A model generated the notes under the pieces. The model was not told where the DNA came from. It did not search any database and saw nothing but the letters and a program-made list of their open reading frames with translations. This document shows, piece after piece, positions 1-43,594 of a DNA stretch of 48,639 nt (its first letter is position 1; every line of letters starts with the position of its first letter). The stretch spans positions 1 through 48,639 of IMG/VR virus record IMGVR_UViG_2778261184_000002. One strand, given 5' to 3'. Both the position numbers and the translations under genes were made by a program. Origin of the DNA: a virus. Lineage: Duplodnaviria; Heunggongvirae; Uroviricota; Caudoviricetes.

Positions 1-557
1 TCCTATATACATTATCTATTGTTTTTGTTGGTGGTAATGTCCCGTTCTTTGATAATTGGATTGTATCCCCGTGGGTTTATCACGTTGTAATCCCATTTGT
101 TTATGGAGTATTTGCATCTGTGTTAGCTCCTATTCTCACACTGAAGATATCTAAGCTAACAAGTAAATTATACACTGAAATAAGATATTTAGATGAAGCT
201 GCTGATTATGATAAAAGAATAGAATTGCAAAGAAAGAAAACAAAGTTAAATCAAGCAACCAATGACGCTAAATATTCAAAACAAATCTTAGATGAAAATG
301 AAAATAAACTTAATGACCTAGCTAAGAAACAGCGAGAAATTTGCGGCGCGATAAAACTATTGCATACTGATGTTGGCAGTATTATTGAGCTATATAAAAA
401 TAAGGGGGTTAGCATTGAATCTCCGCAAGATTTATGTGATTTTATAGTCGCTATAAAAAGCACATCATTCTATAATGATGACAAGCATTTTAATAAATTG
501 GTGTCTGATATTTCCAGTTTGTTTGATAATACTGGAATTGATCTTTCAAAAAAATGA
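1..557 (+). CDS. 5'-truncated CDS running off the window start: hydrophobic segment followed by a K/E/N-rich coiled-coil-like tail; function unknown
   Basis: Frame of ORF 120..557 stays open back to nt 3 (IVFVGGNVPFFDNWIVSPWVYHVVIPFVYGVFASVLAPIL...); strongly AT-rich unlike neighbours; hairpin terminator follows. Confidence 0.4.
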   Translation, partial: LYTLSIVFVGGNVPFFDNWIVSPWVYHVVIPFVYGVFASVLAPILTLKISKLTSKLYTEIRYLDEAADYDKRIELQRKKTKLNQATNDAKYSKQILDENENKLNDLAKKQREICGAIKLLHTDVGSIIELYKNKGVSIESPQDLCDFIVAIKSTSFYNDDKHFNKLVSDISSLFDNTGIDLSKK

Positions 558-563
558 AAGCCC

Positions 564-602
564 AGCATAAACTACTAGGCTATGTGTGGTTTATGCTTTT
601 TT
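564..602. terminator. Hairpin terminator between convergent genes
   Basis: AGCATAAAC (564-572) pairs with GTTTATGCT (589-597), followed by T-run 598-602; A-run upstream on + strand. Confidence 0.55.
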
Positions 603-1784
603 CACGTACTCTATAAACATCTTCTCAGCCTGTTCTTGTGGCGTTCCAGCCATGACAAGCGCATCAATGAACGCCTGCTTCTTCAGTGCGAACTGATCGG
701 CAAGGCGTTGCTGAAGTTCCTTATTTTTCTGTTTCTCACGTTGCAAGGCCGCTTCTTTTGCAGCCGCCCGTTTTTTCTGTGCGTCTGACAACTTTCTGGC
801 CCTGGTCAATTGGTCACGTAGCTTGTCGATCTTGCCGTTGTCCTTTGCCAGTTTTGTACTTAAAGCTGCCTGGCGCTTCTGATAGAGCCTCCATTCGCGC
901 TTGGCAGCGTCAACGTTTGTTTTACTGTTGCGATTGCGATTAAACTCCCTCTCGTCTTCTTTTGAGAAGTGTTTGGTTGTACGGCGGCGATCGTCACCAA
1001 ATGCAATTTGCGTTGCGGCCTTTTGTAACGCACGAGCAATACTCATTTGCCAACTAGCGGACTGTAACCGCGTCATTGAGTGGATCACGTGTTTACAGGC
1101 GACGCCTTGTAGCTTAGGGTTACGAACTTTTGGATAGGCGTATTCTTTTGGCGGTGCCAGGGCAAAGTTACCCGCAGTAGCGATGTAACGATACCAGTAT
1201 TGATGACGACCACAGTCACAATCGAAAGACACCCGCCCGGCGCACAGTGATTTAGTGATTTTCAGAGCTGATTTATCGTCTTCTGCGATGTCATCGACCA
1301 TCTGATCCCATTCTTCAAAGCGTATCCGGACGATATGGTGCTGGTGGACGGATATATCCGATGCTTCTACGCGGATATTAATCACGTTGTGGCGAAGAGA
1401 TACAGGTGTAGCTCTTTTGATACCAGATCCGTCATCCACGGCGTTATTTGCACGCTTAATATCGATTGCCTGGCTGGATGCCACCAGCTGGGCGTATGTG
1501 ATGCCAGCCGTCTTGCTGTCATATTTTTCGCGTGTTTTACTCCGTAGCTTTTCGAAACCTTTCAGGTCGTCTCGCGTGAAGAACGTGCCGCCTTTTTTCT
1601 TCCCTAACTTGAGAATATCTTCGGCGGATTTGTTCCTCAGTCTACCTGGCGTCAGCGTCCGGTGAGCTTGTCGGCGCTTACGGGTTTGTTCTTTCCTGAT
1701 AAGGTCGAATAAACGCGTGAAGTCCTTAGAGGACAGGCCGTCAGTGATATAGCGCCCGTCCTGGTTTTTCAGGAAATCAGGCAT
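591..1784 (-). CDS. SWIM-type zinc-finger protein with a long K/R/Q/E-rich C-terminal tail; function unknown
   Basis: 397-aa ORF; CxC-x(n)-CxH pattern (FDCDCGRHQYWY...GVACKHVIH); start overlaps stop of upstream ORF (ATGCCTGA coupling). Confidence 0.5.
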   Translation of the reverse strand: MPDFLKNQDGRYITDGLSSKDFTRLFDLIRKEQTRKRRQAHRTLTPGRLRNKSAEDILKLGKKKGGTFFTRDDLKGFEKLRSKTREKYDSKTAGITYAQLVASSQAIDIKRANNAVDDGSGIKRATPVSLRHNVINIRVEASDISVHQHHIVRIRFEEWDQMVDDIAEDDKSALKITKSLCAGRVSFDCDCGRHQYWYRYIATAGNFALAPPKEYAYPKVRNPKLQGVACKHVIHSMTRLQSASWQMSIARALQKAATQIAFGDDRRRTTKHFSKEDEREFNRNRNSKTNVDAAKREWRLYQKRQAALSTKLAKDNGKIDKLRDQLTRARKLSDAQKKRAAAKEAALQREKQKNKELQQRLADQFALKKQAFIDALVMAGTPQEQAEKMFIEYVKKA

Positions 1785-2106
1785 TTTCTATCTCCGGTTC
1801 CGCGCTTGCGTAATCACGGATCTTGTTCCTCAGCCATGCCACATCAGGAAGAGTTAACGTGGTCCCTGCGGGCATTTCTTCCATTTCTGACTCATGGCCC
1901 ACCAGCACCCGGAATACCCAGCGCAAATCTGCATTGCCATACGCCCTGTAGGCTGCAAGGTCTGAACGATATACTTCATCAATCTTTATCGTGTACTGGA
2001 AATTATCAGAGTGATACTCCGATACCCGCTTAATCATTTCCTGGTGAAACAGCGCACGAAAAATATCGTCTTCAATGTACCTATCGTCGAGTCTGCTATA
2101 GCCCAT
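1777..2106 (-). CDS. Hypothetical protein, translationally coupled to the SWIM protein gene
   Basis: 109-aa ORF overlapping downstream gene by 8 nt; no recognisable motif. Confidence 0.45.
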   Translation of the reverse strand: MGYSRLDDRYIEDDIFRALFHQEMIKRVSEYHSDNFQYTIKIDEVYRSDLAAYRAYGNADLRWVFRVLVGHESEMEEMPAGTTLTLPDVAWLRNKIRDYASAEPEIENA

Positions 2107-2298
2107 AACAAAGCCTCTCAGTCATAACCTGGGGGAAACTGTATGCAGGGTGTGAAATGCGAGAAACAGACAGGCCACCAGTTCAGGGGGATGTGGTTCA
2201 TAAATCCCCTCACTGGTGGCAAGTGACTTTCATTAATCTTTATGCGGGGCCAGCTTCATTTGCTGGCATTAGATTAAAAATTAAACGGAGTGAATGAC

Positions 2299-2433
2299 AT
2301 GGATGTTATTCTAGAATTGTTAAAGCTTATTGATCTGTTTATGAACGCCTCATTGACCACTCAAATACTGGCGTCAATATTTTTGTTACTCTTCTACCTG
2401 GTATTGAGGGAGTTAACAAAGCTACTAATGTGA
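2299..2433 (+). CDS. Candidate 44-aa hydrophobic peptide (MDVILELLKLIDLFMNASLTTQILASIFLLLFYLVLRELTKLLM)
   Basis: ATG 2299 preceded by GGAG; single predicted TM helix; AT-rich; abuts the 3' end of the convergent 217-aa gene. Too short for the ORF track. Confidence 0.25.
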   Translation: MDVILELLKLIDLFMNASLTTQILASIFLLLFYLVLRELTKLLM

Positions 2434-3087
2434 TCAAAGTATCACGGTATCTTCATCAACTTCTTTCCCAGTCAGTGACTTTGGCTGGGAGGTGCCTGCT
2501 TTAACTTTTTCATGCCCAATAATGGACAGGAACGAAGCGAGTATGCCTGTTTTTTGCTCTTTCTCGACTGTACCGATCATCTGCTCTACGTAATCCGCAC
2601 TGGCAACGTTGTGGTATACGGTCGCGTAGCAACACAGGATCATCAAAATATGCTCCGGCCTGATATCCTGCCAGTTCACCCGGTAGACTTCTTCTCCGTT
2701 ACCATTGTATTCGGTATCAACGATAGAGTCGGGGATTTCGAAAGCACCTTTGTTATTTTGCGGCAGGGATAATAGTTTCTGGAGTTTTAACTCTCTGTAT
2801 CTTTCCATCCCGACGATGATTGCTGCTCTACCATCGGCATGACGGGTCTTGAGAGTCACCTGACTTGCTCCGGTGCCAGCGGAGATCGTTGGCGTAATTT
2901 CGTCTACCAGTACCTTAAATTTGCTTTTCCGCAGGGCTGCTATAGCTGGAGGAATTTTTTGCTTTTGCTCCAATGCTGACGCGGGAAGGGGTTTTACTTC
3001 GTTAATAATGAGAGCACCGTCTTTCAGTATTGCAGTGAGCATTTGAGGCTTGCTGGTGGTCAGGCTGAATATTGCGATCTTTTCCAT
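2434..3087 (-). CDS. Hypothetical protein (217 aa from the internal ATG)
   Basis: Track ORF 2434..3129; ATG at 3087 has a strong RBS (GGAGGAAGG) and the upstream 14 codons overlap a terminator-like hairpin. Confidence 0.5.
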   Translation of the reverse strand: MEKIAIFSLTTSKPQMLTAILKDGALIINEVKPLPASALEQKQKIPPAIAALRKSKFKVLVDEITPTISAGTGASQVTLKTRHADGRAAIIVGMERYRELKLQKLLSLPQNNKGAFEIPDSIVDTEYNGNGEEVYRVNWQDIRPEHILMILCCYATVYHNVASADYVEQMIGTVEKEQKTGILASFLSIIGHEKVKAGTSQPKSLTGKEVDEDTVIL

Positions 3088-3368
3088 TGTCCTTCCTCCA
3101 CGGATGACGGATACAAAAAAAGGCCGCACATGGCGGCCTGCTTTGGCGTTATGACTCCCTACCGCGCTTCGGCTGAAAGTTAATCGTCAAAAGAACCTTC
3201 AACGGGAGCCGTTAGCGCGATGGATTATGTGCAGTTTGTTATTTCCAGAATAGTGTCAATAGTCATTTGCTATTTTTTTTGTAAACGATTTGGTGCTTAT
3301 CAAAAAAACAGAGTGGTTAGTTATTATTATTGGGTTGTTGGTCTTGATTTGTGGTGAAAGGTTGAAAA

Positions 3369-4714: not shown

Positions 4715-4898
4715 AATGGCAGCCTCCTTTTGCTAATTTAAGGAGCTACCGCGTGAGGTTCCAATCTCAATGGCGGTAGCACTGACTGGGTTGGAACTAC
4801 CGGCGCAAAAGGGAACCGGCCTGCCTTTCGGCAGCCCAGCCAGCACTACCATTGATCTCTGAGCTAAACGCTACGTATGGCTGTGCGATGGCATGACA

Positions 4899-4921
4899 CA
4901 AAAAAAGACGCTTTCGGCGTC
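4899..4921 (-). terminator. Rho-independent terminator (minus strand)
   Basis: GACGC-tttcg-GCGTC hairpin followed on the minus strand by T7. Confidence 0.5.
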
Positions 4922-5028
4922 TGTGTCGCCTTTTGCATTATCCGGGGTTCCAATCCCGGCACCCGTTTTTCTAAGGTGCCGTAGAAATATACCCCACGAT
5001 AATGCCAGGGCGCAACTGTGTGTTTTCT

Positions 5029-5195: not shown

Positions 5196-5335
5196 TTTGA
5201 TACTCCCTCCAGTTTTGATGGGAGCAAAGAACGCAGGTTATTGCGTGAGTAGACGGTGAGTGATGGGAAAAGTTTGTAATTGTTCATAGTGACTCCTTGC
5301 TTTCGAAGCCGTCACAGACTGTTCCACGGTCTGGT

Positions 5336-5402
5336 GGCGGCGCAATACAGGTTGGAACACCGTGAGTCAACGGGGGCTTTTAGCCACCTGTATTGCGCTG
5401 CC
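5336..5402 (-). ncRNA. Candidate c4-like structured RNA (long hairpin) upstream of the icd-like gene
   Basis: GCGCAATACAGGT (5340-5352) pairs perfectly with ACCTGTATTGCGC (5386-5398) around a 33-nt loop; shares CAGGTGG with the structured region upstream of the second icd-like gene. Confidence 0.3.
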
Positions 5403-5516
5403 ATAACTATGACATTGGCAATCATACGAAATCCCTGGGGGTTTGTCTCGTTATGTTGACCAGTGGTCCAATCCAATCAAAATGTACAATCAATGAATTT
5501 ATAACTCAACATAAAA

Positions 5517-25682: not shown

Positions 25683-27046
25683 TAGTCATCCTCCGGCGGT
25701 TCTATCGCAATATCATCATCTCCGGCGTCATACCCTGCATCTGATGCATCATAATCACCGTAAATTTCAGCCGTTGCCGAAGGGTCAATGTCCAACTCTT
25801 CATCGTTGGCCTCGAATTCCCCAGCCTTACGCTCGCCATTGTGGTCGTAATCTCCGCACCCCAGATCTTCAACAATGGTTGCCACATCCGCCCGGCGCTC
25901 TGCCAGCCATTGCGGATGGTTAGCCTGAAGCGATGCAAACTCCTTCGCTTCTTTGTCCAGCTGTTCATCATCAACATCATTGATGTCAGAAACTGGAGGT
26001 TCGAGAAGAGTGATAGCTTTCGCCGCGCGCGCCGCGAGGATAGCCGGGACACTGACACCCTGACGCTCGATGTATTCAGCAACACCGATATCGTCCAGCT
26101 CCTCGCGCTCACGCATACGTATAGCGGCGGCGATAACTCTGGCTGCGCGTGCGTCAGCGCCAATGCGATATTCAATCTCTTTGCCACGCTGTTCGGCCTG
26201 TAGGCGTGCTAATTCGAGTTTTTCTCTGGCCTCGGCCTCTCTGAATGCTTGCTGGCGAGCACCCTGACGAAGTTTTTCATCACCCTGTCGCAGCTTTTGT
26301 TCGGACTGATATATCGCTGCCAACCTACTGATAAAATCGTTCATGTAGTAGGCCGCGTCACTGATTAGACCGAGAAGTCGCTGCCCAGGGTGCATTCCTT
26401 CTGGCTGTTCATCACCCAGGGCGTCTATCTCCGCCTGTAGGCGTTCGGCCTCCTGATCAACAATGCTTTGGTACTGAAGTGCGCGTTCTTGCGCCATTTG
26501 AATTGCTAACCGCAGGTGCTCTTCTGCGCCGTTCTTCATCATGTCGCGAGCCACACTCGTAGTGGGCAACGTGGCACGCTGCACAGCACCGCCAGGGATC
26601 ATTGCTGAAGATCCCTCGATTTTTGAGGCGCATTTATCTTCGGTGGGGATCATTTTCGCCATTTTTTCGCGCAATGATCTCCTGACAGATTCTTTTATCT
26701 CATTGTTATTATTTGCATTATTTTCATGATCCGAAGTTTTCTTTCTCGGCATACTTCGGAAAGAACCTGTGCCCTGCGAATTGTCAATTTCTGTAAATTT
26801 TGTTGTTTCTGTACCTTCTTCTGGTCTTTTTTTTGCTCTTCCTGCCCGTTTTTTTTGAGGTGATTTGGTGCTTTTTTTTGTAGTCTTCACCTGCGACCGC
26901 ACCTCATTTTTTTTCATATTGAGATGCTTTCTGGCGGTATTGAAGCTAAGGTCGTGTTGCTCGCAGTATTCCTTTACGGTGATCCCTTTTTCTTCACGCA
27001 ACGCTATAAATTTGGCGCGGTGCTCTTCCCAATTAACCAGACTCAT
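25682..27046 (-). CDS. pacA: Terminase small/DNA-recognition subunit (PacA-like)
   Basis: 454 aa; N-terminal HTH-like segment (ITVKEYCEQHDLSFNTARKHLN), basic linker, acidic C-terminus; immediately upstream of terminase large subunit. Confidence 0.6.
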   Translation of the reverse strand: MSLVNWEEHRAKFIALREEKGITVKEYCEQHDLSFNTARKHLNMKKNEVRSQVKTTKKSTKSPQKKRAGRAKKRPEEGTETTKFTEIDNSQGTGSFRSMPRKKTSDHENNANNNNEIKESVRRSLREKMAKMIPTEDKCASKIEGSSAMIPGGAVQRATLPTTSVARDMMKNGAEEHLRLAIQMAQERALQYQSIVDQEAERLQAEIDALGDEQPEGMHPGQRLLGLISDAAYYMNDFISRLAAIYQSEQKLRQGDEKLRQGARQQAFREAEAREKLELARLQAEQRGKEIEYRIGADARAARVIAAAIRMREREELDDIGVAEYIERQGVSVPAILAARAAKAITLLEPPVSDINDVDDEQLDKEAKEFASLQANHPQWLAERRADVATIVEDLGCGDYDHNGERKAGEFEANDEELDIDPSATAEIYGDYDASDAGYDAGDDDIAIEPPEDD

Positions 27047-27435
27047 AAAGAAACACCACGCTTTTTAACGGCGGCATTCCACAGCTTATTCGCCATGTCC
27101 ACCAGCTCTCGTTGCTCTTTTCGCGCCTGTTCGACTGATTTCCTGCTACAGTTTTTAACCAGTAAGCTACCGTATTCAGGGGTGCGCCCGCGCACCTTGA
27201 ACTGATATCCGTTCAGGCCATGCAACCAGTATTTCCGTGGGTAAACACGATCATCAAGCTCACAAATAGCTCGGCTTGACCGCACAAAATGCCGAATGAT
27301 GTTGGTTACACTTACTCGTGAAACATGAAGGTGAGGATATTTTTCTTTAGCTAGAGTGGTGATTTCGGTGACTGTCAGATAGCAGTCAGCCCTAATCATG
27401 ATATCCGCAATTTCTGCGCTGCTGATATGCTCCAT
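27043..27435 (-). CDS. Hypothetical protein; positional candidate for late-promoter activator (Lpa-like)
   Basis: 130 aa; overlaps pacA-like start; operator-like composite site ~80 bp upstream, like P1 lpa. Confidence 0.35.
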   Translation of the reverse strand: MEHISSAEIADIMIRADCYLTVTEITTLAKEKYPHLHVSRVSVTNIIRHFVRSSRAICELDDRVYPRKYWLHGLNGYQFKVRGRTPEYGSLLVKNCSRKSVEQARKEQRELVDMANKLWNAAVKKRGVSL

Positions 27436-28964: not shown

Positions 28965-29040
28965 TGGTGGCCCCTACCGGATTTGAACCGATGACCGTGC
29001 GATTATGAGTCGCCTGCTCTAACCACTGAGCTAAGGGGCC
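28965..29040 (-). tRNA. tRNA-Ile (anticodon CAU, lysidine-type ileX-like)
   Basis: GGCCCCTTAGCTCAGTGGTTAGAGCAGGCGACTCATAATCGC...GGTTCAAATCC...GGGGCCACCA; clean cloverleaf, encoded CCA. Confidence 0.9.
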
Positions 29041-29482
29041 AATTAGTTTTTATTTTCGACGTCTGAGATTCTTCGTAACTTGTTCTATTCCGTAGACGAT
29101 CACAAGTAGAAACAGCAAAGACCATCCAGGGTTCTTATCGATATACGTCCAAAAATCCATCATTAGTTCCTGTGTTCACCTTACAGCACTGCCACTGAAA
29201 CCAACTATCCGAACAGTAGTTGTCACTCAATAGACGTGACGTATTTATTAGGTTGCGGTGCCGGGTGCCTCCCGGTGCCTGGCGAAGGTTGCACGCCAGG
29301 CGGGTGAGTATCCACAGAAGGCCGACTGTCAGTCTCAACCTTGACCCGCGTGCGCTTAGCCGCATTCACCGCAATGGTAAGAGCACTTGGCTGGCTGGGC
29401 GGCGATGATGCCTGTACGCATTTGGTGATCCGGTTCTGCTTCCGGCATTCGCTTAATTAGCCAAATACTCTTAACGTTGCGC

Positions 29483-29569
29483 TGGCGGAGAGTAATGGAA
29501 TCGAACCATCATCGCTTGCGCAATGGGACGGTTTTCAAGACCGCTTGAGCACCATGCTCCCTACTCTCC
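29483..29569 (-). tRNA. tRNA-Ser (anticodon UGA), class II with long variable arm
   Basis: GGAGAGT...CGGTCTTGAAAACCG anticodon arm, T-arm GATGGTTCGATTCCATT, acceptor ACTCTCC-G-CCA. Confidence 0.85.
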
Positions 29570-29714
29570 GGCCGTTGTGGTGGCCGGTACTGAATCTCCG
29601 GCATACGGTGCAGCCAATTAGGACTACGGACGATCACCGCTCGCGAAAGGGAAGGTTTGCGGCCGCATTTCCCTAACATCCAAGAAAGCTATCGCATCAG
29701 TCTGCGAATCCACC

Positions 29715-29806
29715 ACAACGTTGAGAACACTGGTTGTCACGCTGCAACGCAACATTTATTCGTAGATTGGGATATGACCCCGTTACGTCAGTGTTCTCAA
29801 CGTTGT
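29715..29806. repeat. Perfect 18-bp inverted repeat (ACAACGTTGAGAACACTG / CAGTGTTCTCAACGTTGT) with 56-bp loop
   Basis: Arms 29715-29732 and 29789-29806, inside the tRNA cluster. Confidence 0.8.
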
Positions 29807-30034
29807 AGTACCGGTTACGGTTCCGGCCAGGCCTCTTCCTCAACGGGGTATTCTCCATACGGACTACCGTTTATTGGTCGTTCCTGCGGTTTATGTTGTG
29901 AAGCCAGATGCTTATCTTCTGGTTGCTTCAAAGAGCTGCACTTCATCACAACGGTAAGGGTACTTCGTAGGGATTCGAACCCTCTGCCAAGCACGGCGAT
30001 CTCCGACGTCGCAAAATACCCTTACCTGTTGTGT

Positions 30035-30110
30035 TGGTGCCGATTAACGGACTCGAACCGCTGACATCCTGCTTACAAGGCAGGCGCTCTACCAACTGAG
30101 CTAAACCGGC
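30035..30110 (-). tRNA. tRNA-Thr (anticodon UGU)
   Basis: GCCGGTTTAGCTCAGTTGGTAGAGCGCCTGCCTTGTAAGCAGG...GGTTCGAGTCC...ATCGGCACCA. Confidence 0.9.
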
Positions 30111-30112
30111 AT

Positions 30113-30189
30113 TGGCGATGGTGGGTGGATTCGAACCACCGACCGACAGCTTAGAAGGCTGCTGCTCTATCCTACTGAGCTACACCATC
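30113..30189 (-). tRNA. tRNA-Arg (anticodon UCU; reads rare AGA/AGG)
   Basis: GATGGTGTAGCTCAGTAGGATAGAGCAGCAGCCTTCTAAGCTGT...GGTGGTTCGAATCCACC-CACCATC-G-CCA. Confidence 0.9.
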
Positions 30190-43267: not shown

Positions 43268-43400
43268 TTACGGCCTCACTAACAGGTTTAACAACCTGCT
43301 ACCCGCTGTCAAACAGGTGGCAGGACGTGACAGGGTTGACAGACTGGCGTTAGTGAAACCAGCAGGCCGAAGCCTCCCCATCACGCCCCACCATAATTCG
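43268..43400 (-). ncRNA. Candidate c4-like antisense/structured RNA region upstream of icd
   Basis: Nested inverted repeats (CCTCACTAAC/GTTAGTGAAA; CTGTCAA/TTGACAG; CAGGTGG) between operator-like site and icd start. Confidence 0.3.
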
Positions 43401-43594
43401 GGCGTAACGCGGTTTACGGACACAAAAATACCGCAATATCGGAAATCTGCGGTTGTCCGCACTAACATTCAGGCTGTCAAACCTGGTCGCAGAATTTGCT
43501 ACGACGGCATGAATATAAGCCTGAAAACATGGAAGATCAACTAAAAATTTCAGCAATGGATGACTTCAGTCGATGATGCAGATCATACATTCCG

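Follow-up and report, generated by a model that had tools for sequence, protein, structure and literature searches.

The window analysed here, the whole 48,639-nucleotide stretch of IMG/VR virus record IMGVR_UViG_2778261184_000002 (Caudoviricetes), is assigned by its similarities to a D6-like phage-plasmid related to phage P1. Two overlapping genes on its minus strand, preceded by a 47-bp palindrome, are the subject of this study. By homology, the pair is the D6-lineage copy of the tail-morphogenesis genes 26 and 25 of P1, known genes in a known type of element. On balance we favour a joint reading in which gp25, the product of the second gene, would be a zinc-stabilised assembly factor, and the palindrome would act at the RNA level, as a hairpin within a cassette of the D6 lineage, rather than as an operator.

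A P1-type gene 26-25 pair

Escherichia phage D6, a P1-related plasmid prophage, matches bases 400-3200 of the window at 96.4% identity, and plasmids of ~90 kb from E. coli and Salmonella match these bases at up to 99.7%. The matching open reading frames (ORFs) in the D6 record are annotated as ‘similar to P1 gene 25’ and ‘similar to P1 gene 26’, and the gene upstream of them as ‘similar to P1 gene mat’. The gene 25 homologue (591..1784, minus strand) encodes a protein of 397 amino acids with a pI of 10.1, which is 97.7% identical to D6 orf74 and 56.7% identical to P1 gp25. It matches phrog_1722, the P1 gp25 ‘tail stability’ family (E 4.8e-196); homology over the full length and a position next to a gp26-like gene both support its membership. 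The gene 26 homologue (1777..2106, minus strand) encodes 109 amino acids and matches phrog_1269 (E 2.3e-36), a T4 gp53-like baseplate ‘plug’ family. Gene 26 is the first of the pair, and its stop overlaps the start of gene 25 by 8 nt (ATGCCTGA). The initial annotation, made from the sequence alone, had proposed that the two ORFs form a translationally coupled two-gene operon, and both the ORFs and the overlap bear this out.

The 109-residue partner had been left without an assignment. It matches the solved P1 ‘Gp26’ chains in PDB entries 9ay5 (9ay5_S) and 9vzk with an E value of 1e-16, which places it in the P1 gp26/T4 gp53-like plug family. In cryo-electron microscopy (cryo-EM) of P1, gp26 is seen as a six-fold ‘plug’ by which the wedges are joined to the central hub (PMC12810830), and earlier HHpred work had linked P1 gp26 to T4 gp53 (PMC9024508). 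By homology to the solved structure, the protein from the window would likewise be a small baseplate plug gluing wedges to hub.

The order of the genes, 26 then 25, is the same in P1 and in the window, the proteins are homologous and both genes are late morphogenetic genes. The surroundings differ in several respects. In P1 the operon goes on with genes 7-24-6-5, whereas in the window it ends after gene 25 at an intrinsic terminator (559..581, minus strand), a 9-bp stem followed by a T-run with a T-tract score of 3.08. This terminator is common to the operon and to a convergent plus-strand gene ending at 557. The P1 pair is served by a late promoter of its own, LP26, which lies 48 nt upstream and shares its -22 box with the divergent LPpmgL; there is no recognisable LP26 in the window. 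Finally, gene 26 of the window lies downstream of a homologue of mat, the maturation control gene (2434..3087, minus strand; assigned from the D6 annotation and phrog_1837), unlike the arrangement in P1.

A SWIM-like zinc motif in gp25

The 397-residue protein had been described as a SWIM zinc-finger protein. The cysteine and histidine pattern behind this description is present at residues 189-232 (1089..1220, minus strand), where the sequence reads CDCGR-x(33)-ACKH. The two halves of the motif, C189-D-C191 and C230-K-H232, are separated by a spacer of 38 residues, which is itself conserved and contains the invariant residues R199, E214, P218 and N222. The CxC…CxH motif is found in 120 of 120 gp25 homologues among the matches listed, and its four ligands, C189, C191, C230 and H232, show no variation among 86 close relatives or among 79 distant ones. 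In the latter, which are 22-41% identical, the sole invariant residues are G94, C189, C191, R199, E214, P218, N222, G227, C230, K231 and H232. When these 79 sequences were scanned against Pfam, SWIM was the one family to match at least three of them, with matches in 19 of 79 and a best E of 0.02. The matches are in register, with the CxC and the CKH helix aligned at profile positions 11-36 or 23-37 of 38.

A number of results weigh against counting gp25 as a SWIM protein. The best-scoring relative reaches 14.9 bits, below the gathering threshold of 19.6 bits for Pfam SWIM (PF04434), so that all of the in-register alignments are sub-threshold and none of the relatives attains the cutoff; a Pfam scan of gp25 from the window itself gave no match at E<=1. 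In the original description of the SWIM domain, the spacer between CxC and CxH is short and variable, at about 6-25 residues. The spacer in the gp25 family is 36-43 residues long (mode 37) and strongly conserved, and so falls outside the typical length, whilst the genuine SWIM fingers of E. coli YehQ have a spacer of five residues. Foldseek of gp25 against the PDB returned nothing, and hhalign of the gp25 core against the N-terminus of the YehQ family gave a probability of 0.5%, the comparison with YehQ alone being negative also. The context is different too, since gp25, unlike PF04434 proteins such as ZSWIM8 and E. coli YehQ, is encoded in a phage tail gene cluster. Thus the pattern, its invariance and the weak matches in register stand, while score threshold, spacer length and profile-profile comparison speak against membership and Foldseek found no match. 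We conclude that gp25 carries a predicted, SWIM-like zinc knuckle with a family-specific conserved insert, which in all likelihood works like a SWIM finger, although it falls short of formal membership of the SWIM family. As an annotation for an essential protein family, the motif is useful and modestly new.

SWIM domains had also been thought uncommon in phage proteins, but gp25 is no rarity among phages because its family is large: a profile of the core (residues 86-264) retrieves representatives of at least 740 clusters at 50% identity, of which 337 have E values below 1e-10. None of 297 gp25 homologues has a Pfam domain, and scans of the proteins with Pfam, NCBIfam and PADLOC gave no significant family for gp25. 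A search of PDB chains by profile and sequence found none related to gp25, and PDB sequence searches with gp25 alone and with profiles returned coiled-coil noise or nothing.

The role of gp25

Classical genetics assigned P1 gene 25 to ‘tail stability’ and it is counted as essential, although knock-down by CRISPR interference gave an efficiency of plating of only 0.1 (PMC10695390). In liquid chromatography-mass spectrometry (LC-MS) of P1 virions gp25 was seen by two peptides only, and HHpred gave no role for it (PMC9024508). The cryo-EM models of the P1 virion do not include gp25 (PMC12810830). A gp26-like/gp25-like gene pair is nevertheless kept even in Acinetobacter and Anaerolineae prophage loci, where it lies beside tail-fibre and other tail genes. 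From the conserved pairing and the weak virion signal together, we infer that gp25 is best regarded as a sub-stoichiometric assembly factor.

The protein as a whole has a net charge of +35, and both its N- and C-terminal regions are basic. The last 133 residues (265-397) contain 21 lysines, 15 arginines and 12 glutamines, with a net charge of +17 and a pI of 10.3, and residues 283-378 alone have a net charge of +16. This K/R/Q-rich C-terminal region (residues 283-397; 594..938, minus strand) is predicted to form long helices in an AlphaFold model with a pLDDT of 85.8, residues 318-378 being a single helix. The region matches only coiled-coil proteins in a PDB sequence search, and the P1 record notes a similarity of gp25 to myosin. 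The tail had earlier been taken as a sign of nucleic-acid binding. Its K/R/Q-rich and strongly basic composition is indeed as described, but a long helix or coiled coil is predicted for it, and oligomerisation would be the simpler reading. Given the charge, the tail may still bind nucleic acid.

Taken together, gp25 would be a strongly basic and mostly helical protein, with a conserved core made up of a beta-sheet and then the CxC-(~37 aa)-CKH knuckle of SWIM type, and with a long helix at its C-terminal end. The knuckle would make it a zinc-stabilised interaction module, acting as a non-structural or very low-copy assembly factor together with the gp26 plug at the baseplate, or else at a tail-completion step, and the coiled-coil tail would drive oligomerisation. 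It might be argued that gp25 is instead a DNA-binding virion protein of low copy number, such as a DNA-end or ejection protein, and a positional analogue of T4 gp2 rather than an assembly chaperone. A pI of 10.1, the net charge of +35 with basic regions at both ends and the predicted zinc motif would all suit such a protein, as would a weak LC-MS signal in virions combined with invisibility in symmetrised cryo-EM (PMC9024508, PMC12810830). Gene 25 is also clustered with genes for gp53-like, stopper and terminator proteins. On the T4 map, gene 2 is clustered in the same way with the genes for gp53 and the stopper and terminator proteins. Yet gp25 showed no detectable homology to T4 gp2 or to DNA-binding families, the classical phenotype of gene 25 is a defect of tail stability, and the basic tail is a predicted coiled coil. 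We regard this alternative as very improbable and retain the assembly factor as the preferred reading.

A stable hairpin upstream of gene 26

The palindrome lies at 2174..2220 exactly as first described, GCCACCAGT-tca-GGGGGAT-N11-ATCCCC-tc-ACTGGTGGC, and is 67 nt upstream of the ATG of gene 26 at 2106. It has two tiers, a 9-bp outer stem and an inner stem of 6-7 bp, separated by a 3x2 internal loop and closed by a loop of 11 nt. Its folding energy is -30.1 kcal/mol on the plus strand (z -4.6) and -27.1 kcal/mol on the minus strand (z -3.6), and 0 of 200 shuffled sequences folded as well. Among 19,432 segments of 60 nt from both strands of the 48.6 kb (mean -11.4, sd 4.4), it is the fourth most stable fold, and so it is more than a product of chance, though not unique.

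The palindrome is followed by no U-tract, its T-tract score being 1.26 on the minus strand and 0.32 on the plus strand, compared with 3.08 and 4.69 for two nearby terminators, and a terminator scan did not list it. Having the stem but not the T-tract, it was rejected as a canonical intrinsic terminator; identity as an integron attC site or as a REP element was rejected on sequence. A search of the intergenic region against Rfam gave no match, and no second copy of the dyad was found in the 48.6 kb. Matches with one mismatch are more frequent in the window than expected (29 observed, 8.6 expected), reflecting Chi-like GCCACCAGC sequences. The arms themselves (2174-2182 and 2212-2220) are Chi-like in that ACTGGTGG agrees with Chi, GCTGGTGG, at 7 of 8 positions, and there are 10 further such sites in the window. 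In two variants, E1V33 and pHX138, the left arm contains a perfect Chi. Words of the GCCACCAGN type are over-represented in the window, at these same counts of 29 against 8.6, consistent with Chi enrichment in P1-like genomes.

Between the palindrome and gene 26 lies the leader of the gene (2107..2173, minus strand), with a Shine-Dalgarno (SD) sequence, GAGAGG, at 2114-2119. The leader is conserved among D6-like variants, and matches at 94% over 54 nt between plasmids without a higBA cassette and a plasmid that carries this toxin-antitoxin (TA) cassette. A scan of the 67-nt leader and of the region upstream found no convincing promoter for 26-25, and no motif of the leader was found to recur elsewhere in the window.

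The palindrome belongs to a lineage-specific cassette

In about 20 related phage-plasmids, including loci from Pantoea, Enterobacter, Rosenbergiella, Xenorhabdus, Serratia, Erwinia, Citrobacter, Buttiauxella and Vibrio, the stop of mat abuts or overlaps the start of gene 26, and mat, 26 and 25 form one coupled unit. The 327 bp that separate mat from 26 in the window (2107-2433) are found only in 119 plasmids of Escherichia, Salmonella and Shigella and in D6. Even there, the perfect 9-bp outer stem is peculiar to the sublineage of the window, as 25 of 26 related sequences have a right arm ending in GGTGAC or some other mismatch in the arms. The GGTGAC form is the dominant allele, and the others alter single bases of an arm or the inner stem. 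The core 7+7 bp of the palindrome are unchanged in 22 of the 26 sequences, at low divergence.

In the sister plasmids pEC361_3, p1_000200 and E. fergusonii pEF-4, a higB-higA cassette sits precisely between the position of the hairpin and the -22 box of a late promoter described below. The TA-carrying plasmids have a different, shorter hairpin, GCAGCGTCACC-tggcc-TGGTGACGCTG, after the gene 26 leader and 3 nt after the higA stop, and they retain the late promoter and a small ORF, now 700 bp from the hairpin. The same higBA cassette occurs in unrelated 225-kb plasmids without that hairpin, which is therefore not part of the mobile cassette. Because different hairpins occupy the same place in both types of plasmid, it follows that the 5' edge of the gene 26 leader retains a hairpin independently of the late promoter. 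The mat/26 junction is a hot spot for cassettes; the higB-higA (RelE/ParE-HigA) TA operon found there has a palindromic operator of its own, TGTGTATACACA (L036 81-801, L037 and L038; equivalent to 2168-2220 of the window).

Judged from these comparisons, the dyad is a lineage-specific hairpin in a small inserted cassette and not a conserved operator of 26-25. The initial annotation had read it as the site of a dimeric regulator or as a structured leader; neither description survives the restriction of the segment to a 327-bp insertion, the uncompensated variation of its arms and the presence of another hairpin in the sister plasmids.

A putative late promoter and a small ORF beside the palindrome

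What the initial annotation missed is a putative P1-type late promoter abutting the palindrome in the opposite direction to the operon. A consensus was built from eight annotated P1 promoters, consisting of the 9-bp palindromic -22 box aACAAGTGACTT, N4 and TAnAAT; for membership of the P1-type Lpa promoters, a 9-bp -22 box AAGTNACTT, a spacer of ~4 nt and a -10 of TAnnnT were looked for. The site in question (2221..2239, plus strand) has the perfect -22 box AAGTGACTT at 2221-2229, touching the right arm of the palindrome, then a tcat spacer and a -10 of TAATCT. It is the only perfect site in the window and the top match of the position weight matrix (PWM). Since its PWM score of 16.3 falls within the range of shuffled sequences, support for the promoter comes from conservation across variants, the site being kept in all D6-like variants, TA-carrying ones included. 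The -22 box and the -10 face the plus strand and therefore the promoter points away from 26-25; read on the minus strand, the -10 position is occupied by the hexamer CCAGTG, and the site does not serve the operon. With the Lpa-dependent promoters of P1 it has in common an exact AAGTGACTT box, the 4-nt spacer and a -10 of the TAnnnT form, but the site in the window points instead to an ORF of 44 amino acids.

The window encodes a homologue of Lpa (27061-27426, within the minus-strand interval 27043-27435) that is only 31% identical to P1 Lpa, and P1-type boxes are otherwise nearly absent from the 48.6 kb. Given the divergent Lpa and the scarcity of boxes, activity of the plus-strand late promoter is plausible and no more. 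D6-like phages may have a late-promoter motif unlike the P1 one; when the window was searched for an alternative palindromic box suited to the divergent Lpa, none came to light.

At the predicted 5' end of the small-ORF transcript is a short hairpin, GCCAGC-N7-GCTGGC (2249..2267, plus strand), the stem of which is kept with a different sequence and loop, CCAGCTC/GAGCTGG, in the sister plasmids L037 and L038. The ORF itself (2299..2433, plus strand; D6 orf77) has an SD sequence, GGAG, at 2287-2290, and encodes a hydrophobic protein of 44 amino acids, MDVILELLKLIDLFMNASLTTQILASIFLLLFYLVLRELTKLLM, that matches phrog_38362 (E 3.9e-28). The E. fergusonii plasmid carries a diverged form of this conserved protein; D6 is the only phage in which the protein occurs, and a comparison with P1 PmgL showed no similarity. 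No terminator separates the ORF from mat, on which it converges, and its transcript would extend into mat in antisense.

What the palindrome may do

We suggest that the D6 lineage acquired a 327-bp cassette between mat and 26, which would have brought with it a new leader for gene 26, the hairpin, a P1-type late promoter and the 44-residue membrane peptide in the opposite direction. The hairpin would then act at the RNA level, on a minus-strand transcript reading through from mat (or from higBA) into 26-25. Such a stable stem-loop between cistrons could make transcription pause or bar it in part, could mark a site of processing or could stabilise the message, and it could insulate the tail genes from the accessory cassette upstream. 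Read-through from mat is itself deduced from the failure to find a promoter for 26-25. Three points weigh against this interpretation: the changes in the arms are uncompensated, in a lineage too uniform to show covariation; read-through into 26-25 must cross a strong terminator upstream of mat; and the palindrome may have a role at the DNA level. The cassette has likenesses among known elements. Like the morons and accessory cassettes of phage late operons, it is a small unit of promoter and gene inserted between coupled late genes, at a site that also takes higBA, although unlike morons it runs antisense to the operon and lacks a terminator. Likewise, the hairpin shares with REP-like intercistronic stabilisers of mRNA a stable stem between cistrons, but not the REP sequence.

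A palindrome 67 nt upstream of gene 26, with perfect dyad symmetry over 9+6 bp, does invite the view that a dimeric regulator binds it to control 26-25. An operator is nevertheless highly unlikely when 25 of the 26 related sequences have imperfect, uncompensated arms, when the dyad occurs once in 48.6 kb and the excess of one-mismatch copies is accounted for by Chi-like sequences, when another hairpin takes its place in sister plasmids and most relatives lack the whole segment, and when the promoter scan found none adjoining it on the operon strand. Less improbable, but still unlikely, is a factor-independent terminator or insulator that stops transcripts from mat, from the antisense strand of the small ORF or, in sister plasmids, from higBA; the 67-nt leader would then contain a promoter for 26-25 that escaped recognition. 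Such a function fits with the GC-rich stem, which folds at -27 kcal/mol on the minus strand, with the equivalent hairpin 3 nt after the higA stop in TA-carrying plasmids and with the high conservation of the leader, and a weak candidate promoter, TTTCTC-17-TACAGT, can be read from the leader. That candidate matches at 7 of 12 positions and was not picked up by the promoter scan, however, and the T-tract score of 1.26 compares poorly with the 3.1 and 4.7 of the two clear terminators nearby.

The palindrome might, alternatively, have no function and be the scar of cassette exchange at a recombination hot spot with Chi-like arms. The presence or absence of higBA does fall exactly between the hairpin and the -22 box, the arms match Chi at 7 of 8 positions and contain a perfect Chi in E1V33 and pHX138, and the arm variation is uncompensated. 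A scar would hardly explain why some hairpin is kept at the same position in both types of plasmid, or why the core 7+7 bp are unchanged in 22 of 26 sequences, low as their divergence is, and we consider it distinctly unlikely, between the insulator and the operator in probability. Most likely, then, the palindrome is an RNA hairpin or insulator and not an operator, and it is probably of minor regulatory weight.

The mat leader and other elements in the window

A better candidate for a conserved regulatory RNA lies directly before the SD and ATG (3087) of mat. Here a structured leader is followed by a strong intrinsic terminator (3112..3230, minus strand; stem 3121-3139, then T7). A segment of ~90 nt before the terminator is conserved, and the terminator is present in 15 of 15 P1/D6-related loci examined, with compensatory changes at 2-3 of 7 pairs. 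An upstream long-range helix differs in sequence by lineage (CTCCC/GGGAG, TTCCC/GGGAA, GAACC/GGTTC, TCTGG/CCAGA and TTCGG/CCGAA), and thus shows apparent covariation. A search of the leader against Rfam gave no match. On this comparative evidence, the part of conserved ‘structured leader’ in the ancestral mat-26-25 unit belongs to the mat leader rather than to the palindrome. The mat leader may control mat, or mat-26-25, as an attenuator or as an RNA element not described before. Upstream of the leader there is a further P1-type late-promoter-like site, AAATGACTA-ttga-CACTAT (3266-3248).

Elsewhere in the window, Rfam identified on the minus strand C4 antisense RNA genes at 4769-4856 and 43313-43398, an isrK-like RNA at 4901-4979 and a c4-a1b1 target at 43466-43518, together with three tRNAs at 28968-30189. 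An inverted repeat at 5335-5403, with 18-nt arms that are 94% complementary and 33 nt apart, lies between the C4/isrK RNAs and the next genes.

Implications

A bolder version of these ideas can be put forward, which we hold to be rather doubtful. The gp25 family, which is in no Pfam or NCBIfam model, would be a distinct SWIM-derived zinc module whose conserved insert of 37 residues (R199, E214, P218-K219, N222) forms a specific binding surface. The protein would be an essential, sub-stoichiometric component of myophages, either associated with DNA or the tape measure and so not visible in symmetrised cryo-EM, or else an assembly chaperone of catalytic type that serves the gp53-like plug, and the ancestral mat-26-25 operon would be under the control of an undescribed leader or attenuator RNA.

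The findings refine annotation and reveal no new system. From the intergenic segment it can be seen how accessory cassettes, either a late-expressed membrane peptide or higBA, are fitted by D6-like phage-plasmids into a late operon that was formerly coupled, with a hairpin retained at the cassette boundary. Gene 25 is among the last essential morphogenesis genes of P1 to lack a role, HHpred having given nothing in 2022 and the virion model of 2026 not including its product. The invariant four-ligand motif of gp25 and its conserved pairing with the plug gene now provide targets for mutagenesis and a testable hypothesis for its function.

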